DNA of 64,000 nucleotides from a virus (IMGVR_UViG_3300008050_000024:1-64000), one strand, 5' to 3'. Positions 34,141 to 45,725 are shown, counted from the first letter of the stretch. Numbers and translations: made by a program. The notes: generated by a model from the sequence alone, not told the origin.

Positions 34141-34703
34141 CACCTCCACCAAACGAAATGATACAGGCAAGGACCCAGGAACTGCTTCCTCAAATAGGTA
34201 TTCCCGAACGGTACCAACTGGCTAAATTAGATGATTTCCCACCAGAAGAAAGAAAAATGGTCAGGGCACTTATCGGACCCAAAATCAACACGATCATCGT
34301 CGGACCCAACAAAACAGGCAAAACACATCTCATGGCCGCTATTGCCCGGGAAAATAGCCATAATGCATTTCTCCCACATTTATCTAATTTCATTTCAATG
34401 TCTGACTTGATTCTAAATGTGCGGGAAGGCATCGGAGCGGAAGGCGAAAAAGCGTCCGATATCGTTCTAACTCGAAGATATATGGAATGTCCATATTTGT
34501 ACCTGGACGATCTGGGAGCAGAAAAGACAACAGACTGGGTGAGACAAGTGCTGTACACGATTATCAATTATCGATACAATCACATGAAACATATTCTCAT
34601 CACTTCGAACTTGATGCCTTCGGAATTAGACGATAAACTAGGAACTCGAATTTGTCGAAGAATTGAAGATATGTGTACTGTACACAGAAAGGACGAACGA
34701 TAG
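34137..34703 (+). CDS. DnaC/IstB-like helicase-loader ATPase
   Basis: GPNKTGKT, LYLDDLGAE, IINYRY, ITSNL. Confidence 0.9.
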   Translation: MTPPPNEMIQARTQELLPQIGIPERYQLAKLDDFPPEERKMVRALIGPKINTIIVGPNKTGKTHLMAAIARENSHNAFLPHLSNFISMSDLILNVREGIGAEGEKASDIVLTRRYMECPYLYLDDLGAEKTTDWVRQVLYTIINYRYNHMKHILITSNLMPSELDDKLGTRICRRIEDMCTVHRKDER

Positions 34704-34705
34704 AC

Positions 34706-36259
34706 ATGGAAGAAGTGGGTACACTGGAACGCCGGATAGTCATCGGCCTTGTGCTGAGCACAGACTATCTCCTGCACATACACCAGAAATATGATCCACT
34801 ATATCTCCAGTCTATGACGGCCCGCACAGTGTCCCATTGGTGCCTAGACTACTTCAAAACATATGAAAAGGCTCCAGGGGCTGAAATTGAGGCCCTGTAC
34901 GATGACTGGAAAATCCTAAATGAACAGGATGAGGACATAGTCAATATCACTAACTGGGTCTGCGACATCCTGGAAAATCTTGAAGAGACGGCCCAGGGAC
35001 TCAATGTCGATTATTTAATCACCCAGAGTTTAGACTACTTCAAAAAGAGGTCAATGGAAAACCTCAAGACCATGATGGAATATCACTTGGGACGAAACGA
35101 CCTGTTGCAAGTGGAACAGATGATCGCAGATTATCGAGGAGTCCAAGAAGAGTTGTGCTACGGCGTAACGCCCCTAGACGATGACCAACTAGTCATTGAC
35201 GCCTTTGACGAGAGCATGAAGCCCATGATTCAACTCCCTGGCGTGCTAGGAGATATGTACAATCGGTTCCTGATACAGGATTCGCTCATAGGTATTATGG
35301 CTCCGGAAAAAAGGGGCAAAACATGGTTTATGATGGAACTCCAAATGAGCGCCACTAAATCTAATCTGCCTGTAGCCGTTTTCCAGTGCGGGGATATGTC
35401 CGACAAGCAATGGACTCGTCGCCAAGGCATCCATTTATCTAAAAGAAACGACATGGGTGAGTTTTGTGGGAAATTGATGGTTCCGGTCATTGATTGTGTG
35501 TTCAACCAGAATGACACTTGTATCCGTCCCGAACGGGAACCCAAAACTGACCCCGGGGTGTTATTTCCAGAACTTGACAACGTCACACTAAAGAACATGA
35601 CCTTGGAAGAATACAAGACGGTCAAAGCGTGCAACCCCCATCACGTAGCCTGTACATCATGCCGCTATTCTCCTGATTCACAATTTAGAGGAGCCTTGTG
35701 GTACAAGCAACGGGAAAAGGTCCAGCCACTAACATCAAATAGTGCCCTTTACGAAACGCGAAGATTCCGTAAAATGTTTAAAGCGCCGTTCAAGTTATCT
35801 ACCCATCCAAGTGGGGATTTGAATATTAAGCAAATAAAAGACATTCTTCATGTATGGGAAGATTCGGAAGGTTTTGTGCCTAAGCTCATTTTAATTGATT
35901 ACGCCGATGTGCTTGGAGCAGAGGACTCCCGGAAGGAATTAAGGCATCAGCAAAATGAAACATGGCAGGCTATGAAAGGACTATCCCAAGTAGGCAAGAG
36001 CCTGGTCATTGCGGCGACACAAACGGATGCCGATAGTTATGACAGGGACAGCATTGGCTTGAAGAACTTCACAAACGATAAAAGGAAGTACAGTCATGTT
36101 TCTGCGATGTTTACGCTAAATCAGAACAAAGTAGAAAAAGCAAAAGGACTAATGCGTATAGGCAACTTGATTGCTCGGGAAAGCACAAGCGATGACCGAC
36201 AAGTCAAAGTGATACAACGGCTAGAAATGGGACGTTTCTATCTAGGGAGTTATTTATGA
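34706..36259 (+). CDS. dnaB: Replicative helicase (DnaB/gp41-like) with Cys-rich insertion
   Basis: APEKRGKT, LIDYAD, AATQT. Confidence 0.85.
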   Translation: MEEVGTLERRIVIGLVLSTDYLLHIHQKYDPLYLQSMTARTVSHWCLDYFKTYEKAPGAEIEALYDDWKILNEQDEDIVNITNWVCDILENLEETAQGLNVDYLITQSLDYFKKRSMENLKTMMEYHLGRNDLLQVEQMIADYRGVQEELCYGVTPLDDDQLVIDAFDESMKPMIQLPGVLGDMYNRFLIQDSLIGIMAPEKRGKTWFMMELQMSATKSNLPVAVFQCGDMSDKQWTRRQGIHLSKRNDMGEFCGKLMVPVIDCVFNQNDTCIRPEREPKTDPGVLFPELDNVTLKNMTLEEYKTVKACNPHHVACTSCRYSPDSQFRGALWYKQREKVQPLTSNSALYETRRFRKMFKAPFKLSTHPSGDLNIKQIKDILHVWEDSEGFVPKLILIDYADVLGAEDSRKELRHQQNETWQAMKGLSQVGKSLVIAATQTDADSYDRDSIGLKNFTNDKRKYSHVSAMFTLNQNKVEKAKGLMRIGNLIARESTSDDRQVKVIQRLEMGRFYLGSYL

Positions 36260-36765
36260 CATTCAAAGTGGAAAAAGAATTCAAATGGGAAATGGCGCAC
36301 AGACTCCCATATCACCAAGGGCAGTGCCGTAGACTACATGGCCACTCCTACAGAGCGTTGGTACAATTGACAGGAGCAGATGCCGCTCTTGTGGAAGTAG
36401 AGGGTGATCCAGAAGATGGTATGTTGCTTGACTTTTATCGTCTCAAGTTTTTGAAGGATTACATCGATAAAGAATGGGACCACCGCACCATGTTGAAACA
36501 TGATGATCCTTTGGTGTTTCCCCTCACAGGAGCCGAAGTGTACATGCCTGATTCTCTGGTAATCGTTCCCCATTCACCCACGGCAGAGCACATTGCCAAA
36601 ATGATTTGCGACGTGGTAATGAAAAATATGGCTATAATGCCTTTCATGTGTAAACTGGCTGCCAGTGGTCAAGGAAAAATCAGTGTCAAAGTGTTTGAAA
36701 CGTGTACTTGCTCAGCCACGTATGAAAGGAATTTAAAGGAGGAATCTAATGTCAGAAAGTCTTAA
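36256..36765 (+). CDS. queD: 6-carboxy-5,6,7,8-tetrahydropterin synthase
   Basis: AHRL, CRRLHGHSY, DF, WDH, PTAE, ET. Confidence 0.93.
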   Translation: MTFKVEKEFKWEMAHRLPYHQGQCRRLHGHSYRALVQLTGADAALVEVEGDPEDGMLLDFYRLKFLKDYIDKEWDHRTMLKHDDPLVFPLTGAEVYMPDSLVIVPHSPTAEHIAKMICDVVMKNMAIMPFMCKLAASGQGKISVKVFETCTCSATYERNLKEESNVRKS

Positions 36766-37474
36766 TGTTTTTAGCGTATTCGGTACAATTTCCGGGGAAT
36801 GTGGTGTATTCCCGGCTGGGACACTGGCTACGTTTATACGTCTCGCAGGCTGTCCCTTTAAATGTGCCTGGTGCGACACTCCCGAATCTCTCCCATCAGA
36901 TTCTGGCAATCCTTTTACCATACCAGAAATACTGGAATGTGTCAGCTTCCCTCACATTGTAATCACCGGGGGAGATCCACTAGTACAACAAAAGAAACTC
37001 CCCGCTTTGACTGAAGCCTTACATAACAAGTTTATGGAAGCACGTGGAGAAGCGCCATTGATTCAAATAGAAACATCGGGATTGATTAAACCGGACGTGA
37101 TCCCGCATGTCCAGGGCTACATCCTGGATTATAAACTGGTAGGATCAGAAGAGTTTAATTCGGAAAAGGGGACTACCGATTTTTGGATGGATATGTTGGA
37201 ACCTCTAGGAGCCGCACCTAAGCTGAAACCGAAAGTCTTTATTAAGTATGTAATAAAAGATGTAGCGGATTTGTGCCAGGCGATGCAGTTTACAAGATCA
37301 TTGCATTCTAAACTAACAGCAAGACTGGGACCTACAGTCACATACGCCTTTTCACCCGTACATGGAGCCATGGAAGCTAAGGAAATCGTACGGCACCTTA
37401 TGGATAGTCGTAATAGTCTTCCTCGGAATGTAATGCTAAACATGCAGATGCACAAAATAATTGATATGGCGTAA
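36749..37474 (+). CDS. queE: 7-carboxy-7-deazaguanine synthase (radical SAM)
   Basis: TISGE, FIRLAGCPFKCAWCDT, ITGGDP, IETSG, QMHK. Confidence 0.92.
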   Translation: MSESLNVFSVFGTISGECGVFPAGTLATFIRLAGCPFKCAWCDTPESLPSDSGNPFTIPEILECVSFPHIVITGGDPLVQQKKLPALTEALHNKFMEARGEAPLIQIETSGLIKPDVIPHVQGYILDYKLVGSEEFNSEKGTTDFWMDMLEPLGAAPKLKPKVFIKYVIKDVADLCQAMQFTRSLHSKLTARLGPTVTYAFSPVHGAMEAKEIVRHLMDSRNSLPRNVMLNMQMHKIIDMA

Positions 37475-37551
37475 TTTGTCTATATAAGAGGACTTGGTGT
37501 TATAAATGAACCTTGAGAATAAAAAAATACAAACTTTTTTTAAAAAGGGTA

Positions 37552-37580
37552 TTGTGTCCGGTGACAAAAAGTCATATAAT
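37552..37580 (+). promoter_or_regulatory. Sigma70 promoter inside the modification cluster
   Basis: TTGTGT-17-TATAAT with A/T-rich upstream element. Confidence 0.7.
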
Positions 37581-37629
37581 CAAGGTGTACTTAACAAAAA
37601 CACTCAAGTCCAAATAGGAGGACACACTA

Positions 37630-38184
37630 ATGAAAATGGATCAAGTAACCAAAGCAGCAACGGAACTGAACACTGTACTTGGATGCAAGCCACCAATACC
37701 TACCGCCCCCGGAACCAAGAAGGCAGACATTTTGGTGAAGATCACCGAAGCAGCCACTTTAATTCAGGAAGGCGACAACGTCAGCAACGACACCAGAGCA
37801 GTGATTGCATTTGCGGCCAACCCAGAAGCGGCGGCCCCTCCTGCAGCACCAGCAGCTCCCGAAGGAACACCAGAAGGAACTCCTGCACCAGCTCCTACCA
37901 GCACTGCCAAAACTGTAAAGCAGTCCAAGCCAAAGTCGGAATACGGACACGCCCTGGGATCACTTTCCGGACAGATCGATGTTGCATTGATCGCCCATCG
38001 GGGAACTGTAACCAACTCGGCGGAAATTGCCAAAGTAGTAACTCAAGCGGCAGGCAAAGAATGTACGGCCAAGCGTATTATCGATCACGCCAAGAGCCTC
38101 AACACTCGCAAGCTCGCCGAAGTGGACATCCAGGTTGTGAACCCGGAAGAAGGAGAAAAGTATCACACAGTCAAACTTGCCTAG
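37630..38184 (+). CDS. Two-domain protein with Pro/Ala linker, possibly DNA-binding
   Basis: Strong RBS AGGAGG; own promoter and terminator; wHTH-like C-terminal half. Confidence 0.75.
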
Positions 38185-38761
38185 GCCAGTTGACGATAAA
38201 AACTCAAAGGCGGATCAGTTAAATCTGGTCCGCCTTTTTTTATCTCAAATTGGAGAGAACCCAAATCGTGATGGCCTACTCGAAACTCCATCACGTGTAG
38301 TCAAATTATGGAAGGACGTGTACGGCGGATATGATCAAGATCCGGCGGATATATTGAAACAGTTTGATAATGATGGAGACTATGATCAAATCGTACTTCT
38401 CCGGAATATCGAATTCTATTCAATGTGTGAACATCACATGCTTCCATTCGTAGGAACTGCGCATGTAGCGTATATTCCTAAGGACAAAATAGTAGGCATA
38501 TCTAAACTAGCTCGTCTGGTGGACATATATGCCCGTAGACTCCAAGTACAGGAGCGGCTAGGGCAACAAGTAGTCAACGCTCTAACTACTCATTTAGACG
38601 CTCTTGGAGCCGCTTGTATTATCGAAGCAGACCACTTTTGTATTCGTATGCGTGGCGTTGGTAAGCAGCACTCAAATATGGTCACTTCTTCCTTGGTCGG
38701 GGCGTTCAAAGATAACATCCAAACCCGACAAGAACTAATGTCACTCATAAAAGGAGTTTAG
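38177..38761 (+). CDS. folE: GTP cyclohydrolase I
   Basis: [48 protein letters not shown]. Confidence 0.97.
38206..38241 (+). terminator. Intrinsic terminator embedded in the folE 5' coding region
   Basis: AAAGGCGGATCAG-TTAAAT-CTGGTCCGCC followed by T7. Confidence 0.75.
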
Positions 38762-38762
38762 C

Positions 38763-39758
38763 GTGGAAACCGTAAAAGCAGAAATACTATGGACCCGGAA
38801 TTGCCATCTAGATTGTCAATATTGTGGAATGGTTACGGGAAGGCCCGCATCATACGGCGTTGAACGCTGGAAAGAAACGGTAGACAATCTGAAAAAGCTA
38901 GGATGTGGGTTTATGGCGTTTTATGGAGCTGAGCCTCTTTACGATCCCGATTTTGAAGAGCTTCCTGAAGTAGTAGGATATGCCGAATCACAGGGCATTC
39001 ATACCACGGTAATCACATCTGGTGTAGCCTCCAATGTCAAACAAAAAATAGACAGACTCATTGAAGCCGGTGCTCGTAGTTTGTCCATGAGTTACGACAT
39101 GGTTCCTCTGGACAAACACTCCAAAGCAAAAACAGGAAAAGCCCTGCAATGGCTGACATACTTCCGGGACAATTGTAAAGACTTGAGAGATGTCGCAGCT
39201 ATCGCTACCCTGACCAGTACGAACTTCCATCTGTTGCCTGAAACAATTGAAACAATGTCTTCAGAAGGTATCTGGATGTTTTTTGATATGATCCACCCAG
39301 ACCGAGGACAGCATGGCAGCAAAACCAGAAACCTGCCAGGGACAGAGGAACTGCTATTCAAACCAGAGCATCACAAAAACTTGAAACACATCCTGGACCT
39401 CACTATGGAGATGTCGGATGACGGCTACCTGGTGCACACATCCCGAGAATTTGTGGATTTGATTAGCGCTAACGACTTCGCCCACTTGCAAAACTATTCC
39501 TGGCATTGTACCAAAGAAAAGATGTTTCCGTCCTGGGTGACAATCGATTGTGATGGTAGGGTATTGACGTGCGATGATTACACGATCGAAACTCCCATTG
39601 TGTTTGGTCATGAGCTAGTTGAGAATTGGGATCGGTTCTGTGAAGAAGCCCGAAAGGATACACTCAAATGCCCTGGGTGCATTTGGAACACACACATTGA
39701 TGCGATGTACATTAAAGAGGGGTCAATTCCTTTTTCAAATTACGTCCATACCCTGTAA
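38763..39758 (+). CDS. Radical SAM enzyme with SPASM/twitch-like C-terminus, function unknown
   Basis: CHLDCQYC, YGAEP, C...IDCDGRVLTC...CPGC. Confidence 0.88.
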   Translation: METVKAEILWTRNCHLDCQYCGMVTGRPASYGVERWKETVDNLKKLGCGFMAFYGAEPLYDPDFEELPEVVGYAESQGIHTTVITSGVASNVKQKIDRLIEAGARSLSMSYDMVPLDKHSKAKTGKALQWLTYFRDNCKDLRDVAAIATLTSTNFHLLPETIETMSSEGIWMFFDMIHPDRGQHGSKTRNLPGTEELLFKPEHHKNLKHILDLTMEMSDDGYLVHTSREFVDLISANDFAHLQNYSWHCTKEKMFPSWVTIDCDGRVLTCDDYTIETPIVFGHELVENWDRFCEEARKDTLKCPGCIWNTHIDAMYIKEGSIPFSNYVHTL

Positions 39759-39769
39759 AGGAGAAAACA

Positions 39770-40573
39770 GTGCTATATGATAAACAGCGAATAGAATCTC
39801 TATTAGAAGCAGAGTGCTTTGAAATAGATTCGGATTTACGAGCTCATCCGAATAAGAAAATCGCTCTTTGCTATAGTGGTGGGATTGACAGTTTCACAGC
39901 ATTCCACTTCTTACGAGATCGGTACGGTGTTGAGCGTCTCCGTCTTGTTTGGTTTGATCTCAAATCTCGCTATAGTGAACGGGAGTGGGAATGGATTCAA
40001 CGACAGGATCTGCGTTCCAATATTTCCATACAAGTAGATCGCAGTTTAGACTTGAGTGATCGGGAAGTCGGAGAAAAGGCATACATACCTTTTCGCAATA
40101 TGTTAATTGCTGCCCAAGCTGTCAAATACGGGGACATCGTATGTATGGCGGGAGTCTTGGACGATGTTGTAGCCGATAAAAACAAGCCCATTTTTGAAGA
40201 AATGTCGCATGTGCTCAGTATGATGGAAAAACGGCCCCTTCGGGTTTGGAGTCCGTTTTGGGGATTAAGGAAGCACGAAGTCGTTGCCTGGTTCCTAAAC
40301 AACACGGAACATCCCAGAAACATTCTTGATACTATTTCCTGCTATTCCGGGCATTGCGACAGTAACTACTGCGGAGAGTGTCCCTGCTGTTTTCGAAAGT
40401 GGGTTGCTTTGCGGGCCAATGATGTGATCATAGATTTTATAAATATGAAATTATTGGAAGAATACTATACACTGTGTCGTGACGGACATTACGATACAGA
40501 GAGGAATAGAAGCACTATTGAAGTTATCGATGAATATCGGCGTGAACTAAAGTTCCGAAAGGAAAGTGAATAA
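39770..40573 (+). CDS. queC: 7-cyano-7-deazaguanine synthase
   Basis: PP-loop YSGGIDS, YIPFRN, SCY...CGECPCC. Confidence 0.9.
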   Translation: MLYDKQRIESLLEAECFEIDSDLRAHPNKKIALCYSGGIDSFTAFHFLRDRYGVERLRLVWFDLKSRYSEREWEWIQRQDLRSNISIQVDRSLDLSDREVGEKAYIPFRNMLIAAQAVKYGDIVCMAGVLDDVVADKNKPIFEEMSHVLSMMEKRPLRVWSPFWGLRKHEVVAWFLNNTEHPRNILDTISCYSGHCDSNYCGECPCCFRKWVALRANDVIIDFINMKLLEEYYTLCRDGHYDTERNRSTIEVIDEYRRELKFRKESE

Positions 40574-40889
40574 CATGAGAATCGCAGTTGACATTGACGG
40601 TGTCTTGACTTTGGAAACGGAAGGTCATGACTATACAAACCGAACACCGAATAAAGAAAACATCGAAAAAGTAAATGAACTAGATGCGGCAGGACACACT
40701 ATCATTCTGCACACAGCAAGATGGGAACAGGACCGTGGGGTTACCAAGGCGTGGTTAGATGCTCACGGTCTTGTTGCTTGTGAATTGCTCATGGGCAAAG
40801 TGCTTTGTGATCTGTACATTGACGACAAAGCATCCACAACCATCCCGACGCCGCATGATCTCTATATGGCCCAGGAGGTATTCTCATGA
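40566..40889 (+). CDS. Small capless HAD phosphatase (EcbF/BcbF-like)
   Basis: DIDGVL, HTAR, GK, YIDDKA. Confidence 0.85.
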   Translation: MNNMRIAVDIDGVLTLETEGHDYTNRTPNKENIEKVNELDAAGHTIILHTARWEQDRGVTKAWLDAHGLVACELLMGKVLCDLYIDDKASTTIPTPHDLYMAQEVFS

Positions 40890-41962
40890 TTGTATGGTTT
40901 GCCGGCACGGTAGGGAACAGAATTGAAGTTGAAAACTTTTGCAAATATCGCTTGCATTCGTATCACAGCATCCAAGATGGCGCAGCTACTCGCAATGTCA
41001 TGCAAAACGAGGAACGGACGTACACTCTGTTCCTAGATAGTGGTGCTTTTTCCGCTTGGAACCTAGGCAAACCCATCCAAGTCCAAGACTATATCGATTA
41101 CGTCAAAAATAACTTGTCTAAAATCGATTATTATGTGGTACTGGACGTAATTACCCAAGTCCAAGCTTCGTGGGAAAATCAGTGCGCTATGGAGGCCCAG
41201 GGACTTAAACCCCTTCCAGTCTACCATACGGAAGATCCGTTTCCATACTTGGATCGCTGTTTACACTATGATTATTTCTGTTTAGGCGGGATGGCAAAAG
41301 GGTTTACGACAAAACAGCGTCGGGACTTTTTAGATGCCTGCTGGGAAAGAATGACAGACGCCGACGGGGCGCCTCTCACCAAGGTACACGGACTGGGAAT
41401 GACATCCATCGACTTAATGATGCGTTATCCCTGGTACTCGGTTGACAGCACGTCTTGGCTATTAGCCAGTGCCATGGGAAATATCCTACTCCCCCGGTTG
41501 ACCGAGTCCGGACCTGTATTTGATCAAAAGCCGTTGGTGCTGTCATCCTCCTCTCGGTCGCCTCAACAGGGTGATGACACAAAACACATACTAGCTATGA
41601 AAGGAAAAGAACGGGATCGTGTCTTTGGGTACTTGGCAGAATTGGGCGTCCCCTTGGGTGTATCGGAATTTGTCAAGTATGAAGGACAGGAGATTTTAGA
41701 AGGACAAAAGAAATGCAAAGACGGGAAGGGACAGGAGATTTTAGAAACCATCAAGGAAGAGGGTGTAGCAAACAGTCGATACAGTCGATTTATCGTCAAT
41801 GCGACATTCTTCAAACGATTAGCAGCTGGGTTGGGCAACTGGCGGGAACGTAGATTTGAACAAAAAAGAAAAGCCAAAAAAGGGTTCTTTTCAAAGAACG
41901 TATTTGTACAGCCTCCAGTAAAACGAGCGAAAGGAAAAGTGGATCATGATAAAAACAAATAG
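40886..41962 (+). CDS. dpdA: DNA 7-deazaguanine transglycosylase (TGT-like)
   Basis: LFLDSGAFS, PVYH, LGGMA, VHGLG, PWYSVDSTSW; clustered with que genes. Confidence 0.88.
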   Translation: MIVWFAGTVGNRIEVENFCKYRLHSYHSIQDGAATRNVMQNEERTYTLFLDSGAFSAWNLGKPIQVQDYIDYVKNNLSKIDYYVVLDVITQVQASWENQCAMEAQGLKPLPVYHTEDPFPYLDRCLHYDYFCLGGMAKGFTTKQRRDFLDACWERMTDADGAPLTKVHGLGMTSIDLMMRYPWYSVDSTSWLLASAMGNILLPRLTESGPVFDQKPLVLSSSSRSPQQGDDTKHILAMKGKERDRVFGYLAELGVPLGVSEFVKYEGQEILEGQKKCKDGKGQEILETIKEEGVANSRYSRFIVNATFFKRLAAGLGNWRERRFEQKRKAKKGFFSKNVFVQPPVKRAKGKVDHDKNK

Positions 41963-42989
41963 GGAATACCTTTTAGACCTGCTCCGGCTATTGAAGCCGG
42001 GATTGTCTGAAAAGGATTTAGTAGAGGAATTCGGCGCATTGCGCATTTGTCAAGGCACACTCGTCACCTACAACGACAAAATATCCGTCCAAGTACCTGC
42101 GCCACCCGGCTTAGAGGCACTTAACGGCATTGCAGTGAGGGTTCAGCCCCTTTATGAAATCCTATCAAAAATGGATGATACCGATATTGCATTATTGGCA
42201 GGAGAAGACAACCTTGAAATACGAGGAGCCCGAAACAAAGCCGAGCTTAAACTTCAAATCGTACAGGAAGAAATTCCCATTTGGAACGACATCGCCGCCC
42301 TAGAACAGCACGGAGGCTGGAGTGAGTTTCCCAAAGAATGCATTGACGCTATTCAAATGTGTCTATTCTGTTGTTCTAAAAACATGATGGACGGTGTGTT
42401 GACGTGCCTACACTTTACAGATTCAATGGTTGAGGGTTGTGATAACTATCGACTAGTCCGATATGCCTGGCCCGTACCGCTGCCCTCCTTTGGCGGACAC
42501 ATTATGATCCCGGGAGGTGCACTGTCCACATTGAGCCAGTATCCCATTTCAGAGATTGGATTGACCGATGCCTGGATACACTTCAGAACAGAGCAGGGCG
42601 TGGTGTATTCATGTCGTACGTTTGCCGGCGAATACCCAGACACGGCTGGGTTTCTTGAGGTAACAGGAGACGCAATTAAACTCCCTTCACAGATCACAGA
42701 TGTGATGGAGCGTGCCGCTGTGTTTTGCGACGACAAGTTTGAAGACGAGCAACTTGTAGATATTGAATTACAGGGCCAGGGCAAGGTTTTGATCTCCTCC
42801 AAAGGATCCGACGGCTCATTCATGGAACAGCGGGTTCTTCGGTACGCAGGTCCGCCCAGGAAGTTCCAAGTGCATCCTGAATTTATCTCGGGAGTAATGT
42901 CAATCACGGATGACGCCATTATCGGCGAGGCTAGCCTCAAACTGGAAAAGGGCCCACTAGTTCATGTCGTACTATTGAGTGACGAGTAG
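41946..42989 (+). CDS. dnaN: Sliding clamp (Pol III beta-like)
   Basis: ~350 aa; GCDNYRL and FAGEYPD motifs; position before the polymerase. Confidence 0.75.
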   Translation: MIKTNREYLLDLLRLLKPGLSEKDLVEEFGALRICQGTLVTYNDKISVQVPAPPGLEALNGIAVRVQPLYEILSKMDDTDIALLAGEDNLEIRGARNKAELKLQIVQEEIPIWNDIAALEQHGGWSEFPKECIDAIQMCLFCCSKNMMDGVLTCLHFTDSMVEGCDNYRLVRYAWPVPLPSFGGHIMIPGGALSTLSQYPISEIGLTDAWIHFRTEQGVVYSCRTFAGEYPDTAGFLEVTGDAIKLPSQITDVMERAAVFCDDKFEDEQLVDIELQGQGKVLISSKGSDGSFMEQRVLRYAGPPRKFQVHPEFISGVMSITDDAIIGEASLKLEKGPLVHVVLLSDE

Positions 42990-42998
42990 AAAGAGCTT

Positions 42999-45725
42999 AT
43001 GAAATCTTTTTTTAGTAAGTCAGATCCCCTTTTAAAGCAAAAGGGATATTCGGGGAGTTGCCATACTTGCCGGCTGTATCTAACTTGCCAGAGCCCTAAA
43101 ATGGTAGCATCTGGGATGGGTAATCGTAGAATCCTTCTAATAGGTGAAGCGCCAGGAGAAGCAGAAGACGCCAGAGGGGAAGCAATGGTTGGGCCCTCTG
43201 GTCAGTTCCTGGAACAGACACTCCGGGCTAATGGTATTCTAATGTATGAGGACTGCTGGAAAACCTACGCACTCCAATGCCGTCCTCCTAAAGGAAAGCA
43301 GATAACCGATGAGAGTTTATCTGCTTGTAGGACTCGAGTCATAAAAGAAATAGAAACACTCAAACCCCATCTAATCATTTTGCTAGGAAAAACGCCTTTG
43401 TCCAACGTGCTGTTAGAAGAGTTAGATTCCGAGTTTACTGGAGCCATTGCCTCTTGGCGAGGTAGAGTGATTCCCTTTTATAAGTGGAATTGCTGGGTGG
43501 CTGTGGTATCTAATCCGGCATTCGTCCTAAAATCAGACACTAAGAAGGATTGCAATGCGCTACTTTTTAAGCAAGATATAGCAAAGAGCATCCAATACAT
43601 AAATAAACCCCTTCCGGCGCCTATAGAGGAGCGTAGACACGTGCTCGGAACTCGGGAGGCTGTGGCCTTCTTGTCTAAATTGATCGTACGACCACCTGGA
43701 AACCGTGTCGCATACGATTATGAAGGAACAGGACTAAAGCCTCACGCAAAGGGACATGGCATTGTCTGTGTAGGATTAGCCGTAAATGAATCAGACGTGT
43801 ACTCATTTCTTCTACCCCACATTGATCCTAAATGGACTGATGCTGAAATGCAGGAACATCTCCAACCTGAAGAGTTTCAGCTTATCTGTCTTTGGCGGCG
43901 ATTCCTAGCAAGTGAACTGGTAAAGAAAACAGCACATCATTTGAAATTTGAACACAGCTGGTCTAAAGAGATCTACGGAACTGAGGTGAGGGGGTGGGAG
44001 TGGTGTTCAATGGAAGCTGCTCACATCTTGGACAATACGGAAGGAACAAACGGATTGAAATTCCTTGTGTTTGTTGAGTTTGGCATCACGGACTATAACG
44101 CCGATGTGTCGCAATACTTAAAATCCAGCAAAAAGGAAGAAAAGAGAGTAGGCAAAAACGCCATAAACCGAATCCATCAGTGTAGCAAGCAACTGCTACT
44201 CGAATACGTAGGTGGCGATGCCTTGTACCAATGGCATCTAGGAGAACGACAAAGACAGCAGATGGAAACGCATAAGTTTCGATATCCTCCTAATGTTCTC
44301 ACAATACATGACGCATACGACTTGTTTCACGAAGGTGCTATTGTCCTGGCCGAGATTGAAGCCCACGGAGTAGCCATTGATACAAAGTATTCGACGCAGA
44401 CCATGCAGGAACTCAATGGCCAGATTGAGGGGATCAAAAACGACCTAAAGGAAACCGAGGTGTACAAAGCATGGTATCAAAAATACGGATTCAATACCAA
44501 TGTAGAATCCGGGGCCCAGCTAGCCGATGTGCTCTATAACATCCTGGGTCTTACTCCCACCAAAATGTCTGAAAGTGGAGAACAGGGGTCAACAGACCAC
44601 GAAGCCGTAGCCGGTCTCATCGGAACCGTACAAGGAATTGAAGAAATAGCCCGCATAGGCAAATTAAGGAAAATATCAAGCACATACCTAGGCGGATACT
44701 TGAGGGAAAGCGTTGACGGTATCATACACCCCTTCTTTCATTTGCACATTCCCAGGACATTCCGATCCTGTAGCCGTAACCCTAACTTTCAAAACGTCCC
44801 GAAACGGGACTATGAGAGTATGTCAATCACACGTCGATCCATTATACCCCGCCCTGGACACGTTCTTGTCGAGATTGACTTCTCAAATATCGAAGTTCGC
44901 ATCAGCGCCTGCTATCACAATGACAAGCAGATGATCATCTACATCAAAGATCCCACTACGGACATGCACAGAGACCAAGCCATTGAAGTATTCAAAATGC
45001 AGCCTTCTTGGTGGCACGGATTAACTAAGCCCCAAGAGAAGAAAATGAAGCCTATCCGACATACAGCAAAGAACAAATTTGTATTCCCTCAATTTTACGG
45101 AGACTACTTTGTTAGTTGCGCCCAGGCTATGTGGCAGGAAGCCGCTGAACATACGCTTTTCAATGATGTTCCACTACTTGAACACATGAGATCTCAAGGC
45201 ATTGGTACCTTAGAATCCTTCACTCAGCACATGAAAGAGGTCGAACACAGGTTTTGGCATGAACGCTTCCCAGAGTACACAGCTTGGAAGGAACAGTGGT
45301 ATAAGGATTACATTGCCCGGGGTTGGTTTATAATGAAAACCGGGTTCAAATCAGAAGGGCTGTTTACCAGAAATGAAGTAATCAATCACCCTGTACAAGG
45401 ACCAGCATTTCATTGCCTTTTATGGAGTGTCATTCAAATGCACAAGGAATTAAAAGCCCAAAACAGCCAGTCACGTATTTGTGCACAGATTCACGATTCC
45501 ATGTTTTTAGATGCAGACCCGGATGATTTAGACTTTATTTTCGAGAAATCTACAGAGATAATGACACAGCGGTTGGTAGACGAATGGAAGTGGATCACAG
45601 TCCCATTGGCGATAGAACACGATGTCAGCAGGGTAGACGGGACTTGGCAAGAACAGACGACATTACCGTGGGATAAGTTAAAGAACAGACAAGAGGATAT
45701 CCGTACGTTTTTAGCGAGTATATAG
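42999..45725 (+). CDS. polA: Family A DNA polymerase with N-terminal family-4 UDG-like domain and 3'-5' exonuclease
   Basis: GEAPG/CRPP; DYEGTG; NPNFQNVP; motif A DFSNIEVR, motif B RHTAKNKFVFPQFYG, motif C QIHDS. Confidence 0.96.
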   Translation: MKSFFSKSDPLLKQKGYSGSCHTCRLYLTCQSPKMVASGMGNRRILLIGEAPGEAEDARGEAMVGPSGQFLEQTLRANGILMYEDCWKTYALQCRPPKGKQITDESLSACRTRVIKEIETLKPHLIILLGKTPLSNVLLEELDSEFTGAIASWRGRVIPFYKWNCWVAVVSNPAFVLKSDTKKDCNALLFKQDIAKSIQYINKPLPAPIEERRHVLGTREAVAFLSKLIVRPPGNRVAYDYEGTGLKPHAKGHGIVCVGLAVNESDVYSFLLPHIDPKWTDAEMQEHLQPEEFQLICLWRRFLASELVKKTAHHLKFEHSWSKEIYGTEVRGWEWCSMEAAHILDNTEGTNGLKFLVFVEFGITDYNADVSQYLKSSKKEEKRVGKNAINRIHQCSKQLLLEYVGGDALYQWHLGERQRQQMETHKFRYPPNVLTIHDAYDLFHEGAIVLAEIEAHGVAIDTKYSTQTMQELNGQIEGIKNDLKETEVYKAWYQKYGFNTNVESGAQLADVLYNILGLTPTKMSESGEQGSTDHEAVAGLIGTVQGIEEIARIGKLRKISSTYLGGYLRESVDGIIHPFFHLHIPRTFRSCSRNPNFQNVPKRDYESMSITRRSIIPRPGHVLVEIDFSNIEVRISACYHNDKQMIIYIKDPTTDMHRDQAIEVFKMQPSWWHGLTKPQEKKMKPIRHTAKNKFVFPQFYGDYFVSCAQAMWQEAAEHTLFNDVPLLEHMRSQGIGTLESFTQHMKEVEHRFWHERFPEYTAWKEQWYKDYIARGWFIMKTGFKSEGLFTRNEVINHPVQGPAFHCLLWSVIQMHKELKAQNSQSRICAQIHDSMFLDADPDDLDFIFEKSTEIMTQRLVDEWKWITVPLAIEHDVSRVDGTWQEQTTLPWDKLKNRQEDIRTFLASI

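Follow-up and report, generated by a model that had tools for sequence, protein, structure and literature searches.

We analysed a 64,000-nucleotide stretch of viral DNA (IMGVR_UViG_3300008050_000024:1-64000, hereafter the window), taken from an uncultivated phage contig in IMG/VR of 103,868 bp that is 94% complete. Positions 36256 to 41962 hold eight genes on the + strand, which together form a 7-deazaguanine DNA-modification cluster. 7-Deazaguanine bases are a main phage escape from restriction, and eight derivatives and their enzymes are known. Three of the eight genes stand out here, namely those for an extra radical S-adenosylmethionine (SAM) enzyme, for a divergent QueC-family protein (hereafter QueC-like) and for a small haloacid dehalogenase-type (HAD) phosphatase, and this trio probably belongs to the deazaguanine pathway. 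The genes of the cluster and its surroundings are the following:

34673..36259, + strand: DnaB-like replicative helicase, upstream flank (phrog_19, 1.2e-17); its stop overlaps the QueD start
36256..36765, + strand: QueD, 6-carboxytetrahydropterin synthase (Pfam PTPS, 5.2e-25; phrog_2389, 5.9e-28)
36749..37474, + strand: QueE, 7-carboxy-7-deazaguanine synthase, a radical SAM enzyme (phrog_2076, QueE-like, 9.7e-26)
37630..38184, + strand: fam197 protein, 184 aa (family profile, hmmsearch, 6.5e-16)
38177..38761, + strand: FolE, GTP cyclohydrolase I (Pfam, 6.5e-70; NCBIfam FolE, 1e-74, above cut-off)
38763..39758, + strand: Twitch-type radical SAM enzyme (type 1), 331 aa (Pfam Radical_SAM, 3.5e-15)
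39770..40573, + strand: divergent QueC-family PP-loop ATPase (QueC-like), 267 aa (Pfam QueC, 1.3e-13)
40566..40889, + strand: minimal, cap-less HAD phosphatase, 107 aa (phrog_1238, 5e-20; TIGR01689, 8e-10)
40886..41962, + strand: DpdA, DNA guanine transglycosylase (phrog_887, 6.7e-54)
41946..42989, + strand: sliding clamp or polymerase processivity factor, context (phrog_947, 1e-20)
42999..45725, + strand: DNA polymerase, context (phrog_17, 4.2e-80)

Profile searches identified every one of the eight genes, confirming the deazaguanine cluster that the initial annotation had placed between helicase and clamp/polymerase. The tight packing that it had described from folE through dpdA was likewise borne out, as the genes abut or overlap, with spacings of +11 to -17 nucleotides between neighbouring cluster genes. 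An initiator/loader and the DnaB-like helicase flank the cluster on one side, the clamp and the DNA polymerase on the other, and the whole makes up a 7-deazaguanine DNA-modification operon of DpdA type within the phage replication module. Across the entire 94%-complete record, the QueF profile (PF14489) gave only a sub-threshold cross-match on FolE, the profiles for Gat-QueC or class-II glutamine amidotransferase (PF13537) and for ArcS (PF17884, DUF5591) found no match, and no canonical QueC was present. The absence of QueF, Gat-QueC and ArcS, initially noted for the window, therefore extends to all 103,868 bp. The record contains one gene of the QueC family, and its radical SAM genes number two, that for QueE and that for the extra enzyme.

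The gene that had been taken as queC encodes, judging by its motifs, a divergent and non-canonical QueC paralogue without two of the five published motifs. Measured against the canonical five-motif signature (PMC13329287), the protein has the SGGxDS loop (S36-G-G-I-D-S41, invariant in 21 sequences), the VPxRN motif in the form I-P107-F-R109-N110, with P, R and N invariant, and the C-terminal zinc motif with its Tyr (S-C191-Y192 ... C201-x2-C204-x2-C207-F-R, invariant). YxQxHxxE is matched by no QueC-like sequence, the region reading (V)YFDLxTPYSxKE instead, and YPDC is missing, with (V)SDKN in its place and a three-residue deletion relative to 3bl5. Y35 and Y131, which lie in these two motifs, are essential for E. 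coli QueC function, as is R99 of VPxRN (Libby et al. 2026, PMC13329287). The NCBIfam QueC equivalog TIGR00364 scored 36.7 bits on the protein, well below its cut-off of 150.3. A profile of the QueC-like family retrieved QueC 3bl5 at 3.6e-10 and Cap9 9nto at 1e-5; on clade relatives, a Cap9-type model from PADLOC scored 4e-10 to 9e-18. Among 50,697 deposited phage genomes, only three weak matches were found, although 200 of these genomes carry DpdA; for the matches in Bacteroides phage BS162P1 and phage NCTB, all neighbours are annotated as 'hypothetical', and family profiles find no radical SAM gene nearby.

Despite its divergence, the QueC-like protein might be a working synthase that converts 7-carboxy-7-deazaguanine (CDG) to preQ0 or to 7-amido-7-deazaguanine (ADG), so that the DNA would carry dPreQ0 or dADG and the radical SAM and HAD enzymes would be accessory. 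The HAD would help, for example, by hydrolysing the pyrophosphate or triphosphate released by QueC and QueD, and the radical SAM enzyme would be optional, minor or unrelated. We consider this unlikely. It would account for a sole QueC-family gene in a cluster otherwise matching the minimal dPreQ0 set (PMC6884629), and for the retention of the PP-loop, the essential Arg of VPxRN and the zinc motif with its Tyr; the loss of two motifs whose residues E. coli QueC needs argues against it, and the wider set of loci, considered below, bears on it in both directions.

The extra radical SAM enzyme is not QueE, which has its own gene at 36749-37474, and it is surplus to preQ0 synthesis, as originally proposed. 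Its CxxxCxxC motif (C14/C18/C21) is invariant, and PF04055 scored 57 bits against a gathering cut-off of 29.5. There was no QueE model among its 25 best NCBIfam matches, and none of the named NCBIfam families reached its cut-off. The C-terminus carries C249-x15-G265-x4-C270 ... C303-x2-C306, invariant in 18 sequences and also kept in a more distant set of homologues (type 2, see below). As a sequence pattern, this CX15GX4C...CX2C arrangement is that of a Twitch-type domain for a single auxiliary cluster. The earlier designation 'radical SAM/SPASM' thus holds for the CxxxCxxC motif and the auxiliary-cluster cysteines; Pfam SPASM (PF13186), which is carried by 12-20% of the members of the nearest Atlas clusters, has no match on the window protein, and the cysteine pattern points to the Twitch type.

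An AlphaFold2 model of the enzyme (pLDDT 91.7) had BlsE (7vob) as its top fold match over the whole length (Z 25.1, root-mean-square deviation 3.6, 300 residues), followed by SuiB, PqqE, SkfB, viperins and MoaA at Z 18-21 (next best 21.3). The BlsE family model TIGR04466 scored 28.2 bits, far below its cut-off of 400. The modelled fold points to a small-molecule substrate of sugar or nucleoside type and leaves the reaction unfixed. BlsE decarboxylates a nucleoside glucuronate (PMC3715490), and its lead as structural match over the next best fits the idea that the radical SAM enzyme, like BlsE, acts as a decarboxylase and turns CDG into 7-deazaguanine (dDG in DNA, compare Cellulophaga phage phiST). 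It would then do the job of DpdL, a proposed CDG decarboxylase whose activity was never demonstrated (PMC10516641). This idea is very improbable: on chemical grounds, CDG bears its carboxylate at an aromatic carbon, whereas BlsE attacks an sp3 centre; the dDG phages are without QueC, while the present clusters consistently retain both QueC-like and HAD; and a common fold is no proof of function.

Viperin models and structures among the matches raise another alternative, in which the radical SAM enzyme and the HAD serve the nucleotide pool or replication, as a viperin-like modifier and a nucleotidase, and their co-location with the deazaguanine genes is incidental to the replication operon. The HAD family is indeed common in T4-like phages and cyanophages without deazaguanine genes. 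Against this, the trio stays adjacent through rearrangements, the HAD occurs fused to QueC-like or FolE, and no neighbourhood examined showed a member of the radical SAM family apart from this type of cluster, which together leave an incidental co-location scarcely credible.

Close relatives of the radical SAM enzyme in the protein collection number 178, all of them metagenomic, for which the source databases give only generic radical SAM names and no function; a full profile search brought the family to 120 clusters at 50% identity (E 1e-30 or better). Neither type 1 nor type 2 was found in the 50,697 deposited phage genomes, and the enzyme has therefore escaped study; a DNA-level search of phage genomes returned a FolE fragment only. 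The papers PMC6884629, PMC10516641 and PMC13329287 mention no second radical SAM enzyme or phosphatase in such clusters, and literature searches turned up no other account of the enzyme. As to candidate identities, DpdM is ruled out, being a DUF3109/YkgJ protein, and the radical SAM proteins reported from Thermus and Campylobacter phages belong to other modules. Two longer homologues, P0161 (752 aa) and P0205 (579 aa), carry HINT/intein splicing domains after about residue 300; they are intein hosts, and we rejected them as informative fusions.

Linkage of the radical SAM family to dpdA, which a gene-neighbourhood survey was to check according to the initial annotation, held in every neighbourhood seen. 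In all 38 IMG/VR loci obtained with the radical SAM query, radical SAM, QueC-like, HAD and DpdA are linked, the exceptions within this set being contig-end cuts or a DpdA perhaps too divergent to detect (L036), and QueD, QueE and FolE lie upstream in most of them. The same linkage appeared in three contigs of metagenome-assembled genomes, the only matches when 185,579 species were searched with one genome apiece, and again with a distant member of the radical SAM family (profile E about 1e-28); for the distant member P0263, no IMG/VR locus was found. The three genes of the trio remain side by side where FolE and DpdA change position (L009, L026, L027, L028, L032, L034). Searching with the QueC-like profile and removing duplicates gave 74 distinct loci, of which 58 contain the radical SAM family (38 type 1, 19 type 2, L079 with both, plus two end fragments), 63 the HAD and 65 DpdA. 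Sixteen loci are without a radical SAM gene, six of them cut off upstream and ten with at least about 4 kb of upstream sequence. As the third member of the trio, the radical SAM enzyme is common yet not indispensable.

In the HAD protein, D9, D11, R52 and K78 are invariant, D82 is near-invariant and a T or S precedes R52; its Pfam matches lie below gathering scores. In 14 of the 74 loci, QueC-like carries an orthologue of the HAD fused to its C-terminus, and in one the HAD is fused to FolE (L045, where a single open reading frame from L045:8335 onward encodes HAD and FolE in a locus with QueC-like and DpdA and without radical SAM). Because of the 14 fusions to QueC-like, we assign the HAD to the step of that protein and not to that of the radical SAM enzyme; the initial pairing of HAD with radical SAM does not hold in the form proposed.

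Further information came from a sister clade, whose type-2 radical SAM enzyme is a full-length homologue of type 1 (hhalign E 7e-56) at about 21% identity with the same C-terminal cysteines. Here the trio stands beside Gat-QueC and often also beside a short-chain dehydrogenase. Operons with FolE, short-chain dehydrogenase, type-2 radical SAM, Gat-QueC, HAD, QueC-like and DpdA occur in L105, L108, L111-L114, L116 and L120 (for example L113:4414-8663), and such an operon amounts to the full pathway to the archaeosine base (dG+) plus four extra enzymes. Gat-QueC and DpdA of phage 9g make dG+ from CDG without QueC, even in E. coli delta-queC (PMC6884629). Since the 9g Gat-QueC suffices for dG+, a QueC-like protein encoded beside Gat-QueC is unlikely to be a mere QueC, and the trio should add something.

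Across the 74 loci, Gat-QueC never co-occurs with type 1 (0 loci), as against 11 loci with type 2. Such mutual exclusion would be expected if the trio made dG+ in place of Gat-QueC, in the manner of ArcS and RaSEA, with the amidine nitrogen coming from an amino-acid donor. That the window and phage NP1 have a common operon frame, in which the trio occupies the place of Gat-QueC, fits this new route to a known base, and ArcS with the radical SAM lyase RaSEA provides a ligase/lyase precedent on deazaguanine (PMC11298593). We nevertheless judge it distinctly improbable, as type-2 homologues do coexist with Gat-QueC, the genome is without an ArcS-type domain, and the exclusivity of type 1 and Gat-QueC tracks clade boundaries and may be a matter of descent.

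Some relatives carry additional genes for decorating enzymes. About 15 loci have generic small-molecule SAM methyltransferases inside the cluster, with no match to the usual DNA methyltransferase models. They make up three families at varying cluster positions (L087:7302-7982, L051:8670-9266, L060:7448-7999 and relatives), one with a zinc ribbon and another weakly UbiG-like. In L128 (9082-10720) and L129, both contigs of about 110 kb, two family 2 glycosyltransferases and a 306-aa protein separate a distant radical SAM homologue from a DpdA-like protein of 517 aa, in a cluster that also has QueD, QueE, FolE, HAD and QueC-like; this gene content suggests a glycosylated deazaguanine in that lineage. 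Methylation or glycosylation requires a handle in the form of a hydroxyl or an amine, and preQ0, ADG and G+ do not provide one.

These observations can be arranged into a pathway. By homology and retained motifs, FolE, QueD and QueE would take GTP to CDG, and DpdA, again by homology, would swap the finished base for guanine in DNA, possibly while riding on the clamp from the neighbouring gene. The step from CDG to the inserted base would be carried out by a conserved three-enzyme module rather than by QueC or Gat-QueC. QueC-like would adenylate the CDG carboxylate and couple it to a nitrogen nucleophile other than ammonia, comparable to what Cap9 and QatC do with protein amines. The HAD would strip a phosphate from the donor or the adduct, exposing a hydroxyl that some relatives may methylate or glycosylate, and the Twitch radical SAM enzyme would oxidise, decarboxylate or cleave the appended group. 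BlsE, BtrN, MftC and RaSEA perform such reactions on comparable substrates. On this scheme, what enters the DNA would be a tailored deazaguanine of the 7-carboxamide type and not plain preQ0.

For the account as a whole, a DpdA operon in which the trio replaces QueC or Gat-QueC and yields a tailored base, we see roughly even chances. That the final base is new falls somewhat short of that. About as likely is its assignment to an N-substituted 7-carboxamide class, in which CDG is joined to a phosphorylated amine or amino-acid donor, unmasked by the HAD and remodelled by the radical SAM enzyme, with methylation or glycosylation in some lineages. The undescribed hypermodification that had been proposed for this cluster consequently stands in part: the extra radical SAM enzyme is linked to dpdA, but a new base is still a matter of interpretation, and the product may be a known base made by a new route.

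Several findings weigh against a tailoring trio. In the ten loci with at least about 4 kb of upstream sequence, QueC-like is present and no radical SAM gene is seen in the available sequence, so QueC-like can work without that enzyme and may simply be a preQ0 or ADG synthase that has diverged strongly. In the sister clade, the Gat-QueC proteins likewise fail the strict canonical motif patterns; they might accordingly perform the amidine step only, leaving QueC-like as the true QueC. In compact genomes, the fusion of neighbouring genes carries less weight than that of genes lying apart, the linkage in part reflects shared descent because all loci come from related phages, and the window itself has no methyltransferase or glycosyltransferase.

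A working CDG-to-preQ0 or ADG synthase with accessory partners would fit those ten loci, most of which do have HAD and DpdA, and also the single fusion of HAD to FolE, whose pathway releases triphosphate. It would not explain why the trio persists beside a Gat-QueC that should make QueC-like redundant, why the radical SAM enzyme has been kept down to about 21% identity and across the 120 clusters, some copies even with inteins, or why relatives have methyltransferases and glycosyltransferases needing a handle that preQ0 does not offer.

QueD retains the catalytic motif CxxxHGH (C24-RRL-HGH) and is therefore QueD and not DpdL, whose signature LxxxHRHxF is not present in the window protein. QueE matched the NCBIfam QueE models at 3e-21, all under their cut-offs, and has its CxxxCxxC motif at residue 35. 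The fam197 family occupies the slot between queE and folE in 62 loci (not deduplicated). Its AlphaFold2 model shows two small helical domains joined by a disordered linker, which is acidic or proline-rich, and a Foldseek search returned only weak winged-helix regulator matches, none significant (best E 1.6); from the model, fam197 is probably a non-enzymatic protein of DNA-binding type. A longer open reading frame in the same gap (37506-38222) is a spurious, Arg/Ser/Gln-rich low-complexity frame, and the overlapping 37630-38184 is the real gene.

The bacterial DpdA model NF041059 scored 15.5 bits on the window DpdA, below its cut-off of 200. The protein has a C-terminal extension that bears KKGFFSK (window 41876-41896), and many orthologues (L002-L041) end in a peptide of the form basic-x-F/L-F/L, such as RSFF, GRLF, EGLF or KGFF. 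By its sequence, this tail resembles a clamp-binding peptide, and with the clamp gene directly next to it, DpdA may be tethered to the sliding clamp behind the fork. In L001 (13047-14977, on the same contig as L061), two adjacent DpdA-family reading frames share one cluster, a pairing that hints at two transglycosylases with differing substrates or targets.

Overall, the module is widespread in metagenomic phages and points to novelty either in the DNA base or in the enzymes that make it. If QueC-like acts as proposed, the QueC scaffold, already known to serve in preQ0 synthesis and in protein deazaguanylation, would gain a third use.

Among known systems, the dG+/dPreQ0 clusters of Queuovirinae (9g, NP1, CAjan) share with the window the precursor genes FolE, QueD and QueE as well as DpdA. 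The window DpdA is 38% identical, over 68% of its length, to that of Pseudomonas phage NP1 and other Queuovirinae, with the same synteny, and the NP1 order of helicase, QueE, Gat-QueC, QueD, FolE, DpdA, clamp and polymerase supplies the operon frame seen here; the setting is therefore a known kind of system. The difference lies in the radical SAM, QueC-like and HAD genes, which stand where QueC or Gat-QueC sits in those phages. DpdL, DpdM and DpdN (Cui et al. 2023) are also extra enzymes that diversify the inserted base in DpdA clusters, yet they are a QueD-like protein, a DUF3109 protein and a formyltransferase, respectively, as opposed to the radical SAM enzyme, PP-loop ATPase and HAD of the window.

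Outside phage DNA modification, BlsE is of similar size to the radical SAM enzyme and has a C-terminal cysteine-bearing domain and a small-molecule substrate of nucleoside type; the two are 15% identical, and the substrate must differ. In archaeal tRNA, ArcS and RaSEA offer what may be a likeness of roles, in that a nitrogen-donor ligase and a radical SAM enzyme finish the side chain of a 7-deazaguanine, whereas the phage genome has no ArcS domain, the ligase would be QueC-like and the target is DNA. Finally, Cap9 of type IV CBASS (cyclic oligonucleotide-based antiphage signalling system) and QatC share with QueC-like the QueC fold, the PP-loop and the zinc motif. In contrast to them, QueC-like belongs to a DNA-modification operon of a phage, alongside a DNA transglycosylase and without CD-NTase, QatA, QatB or QatD; by joining CDG to a protein amine, however, Cap9 and QatC set the precedent for forming an amide with an amine other than ammonia.

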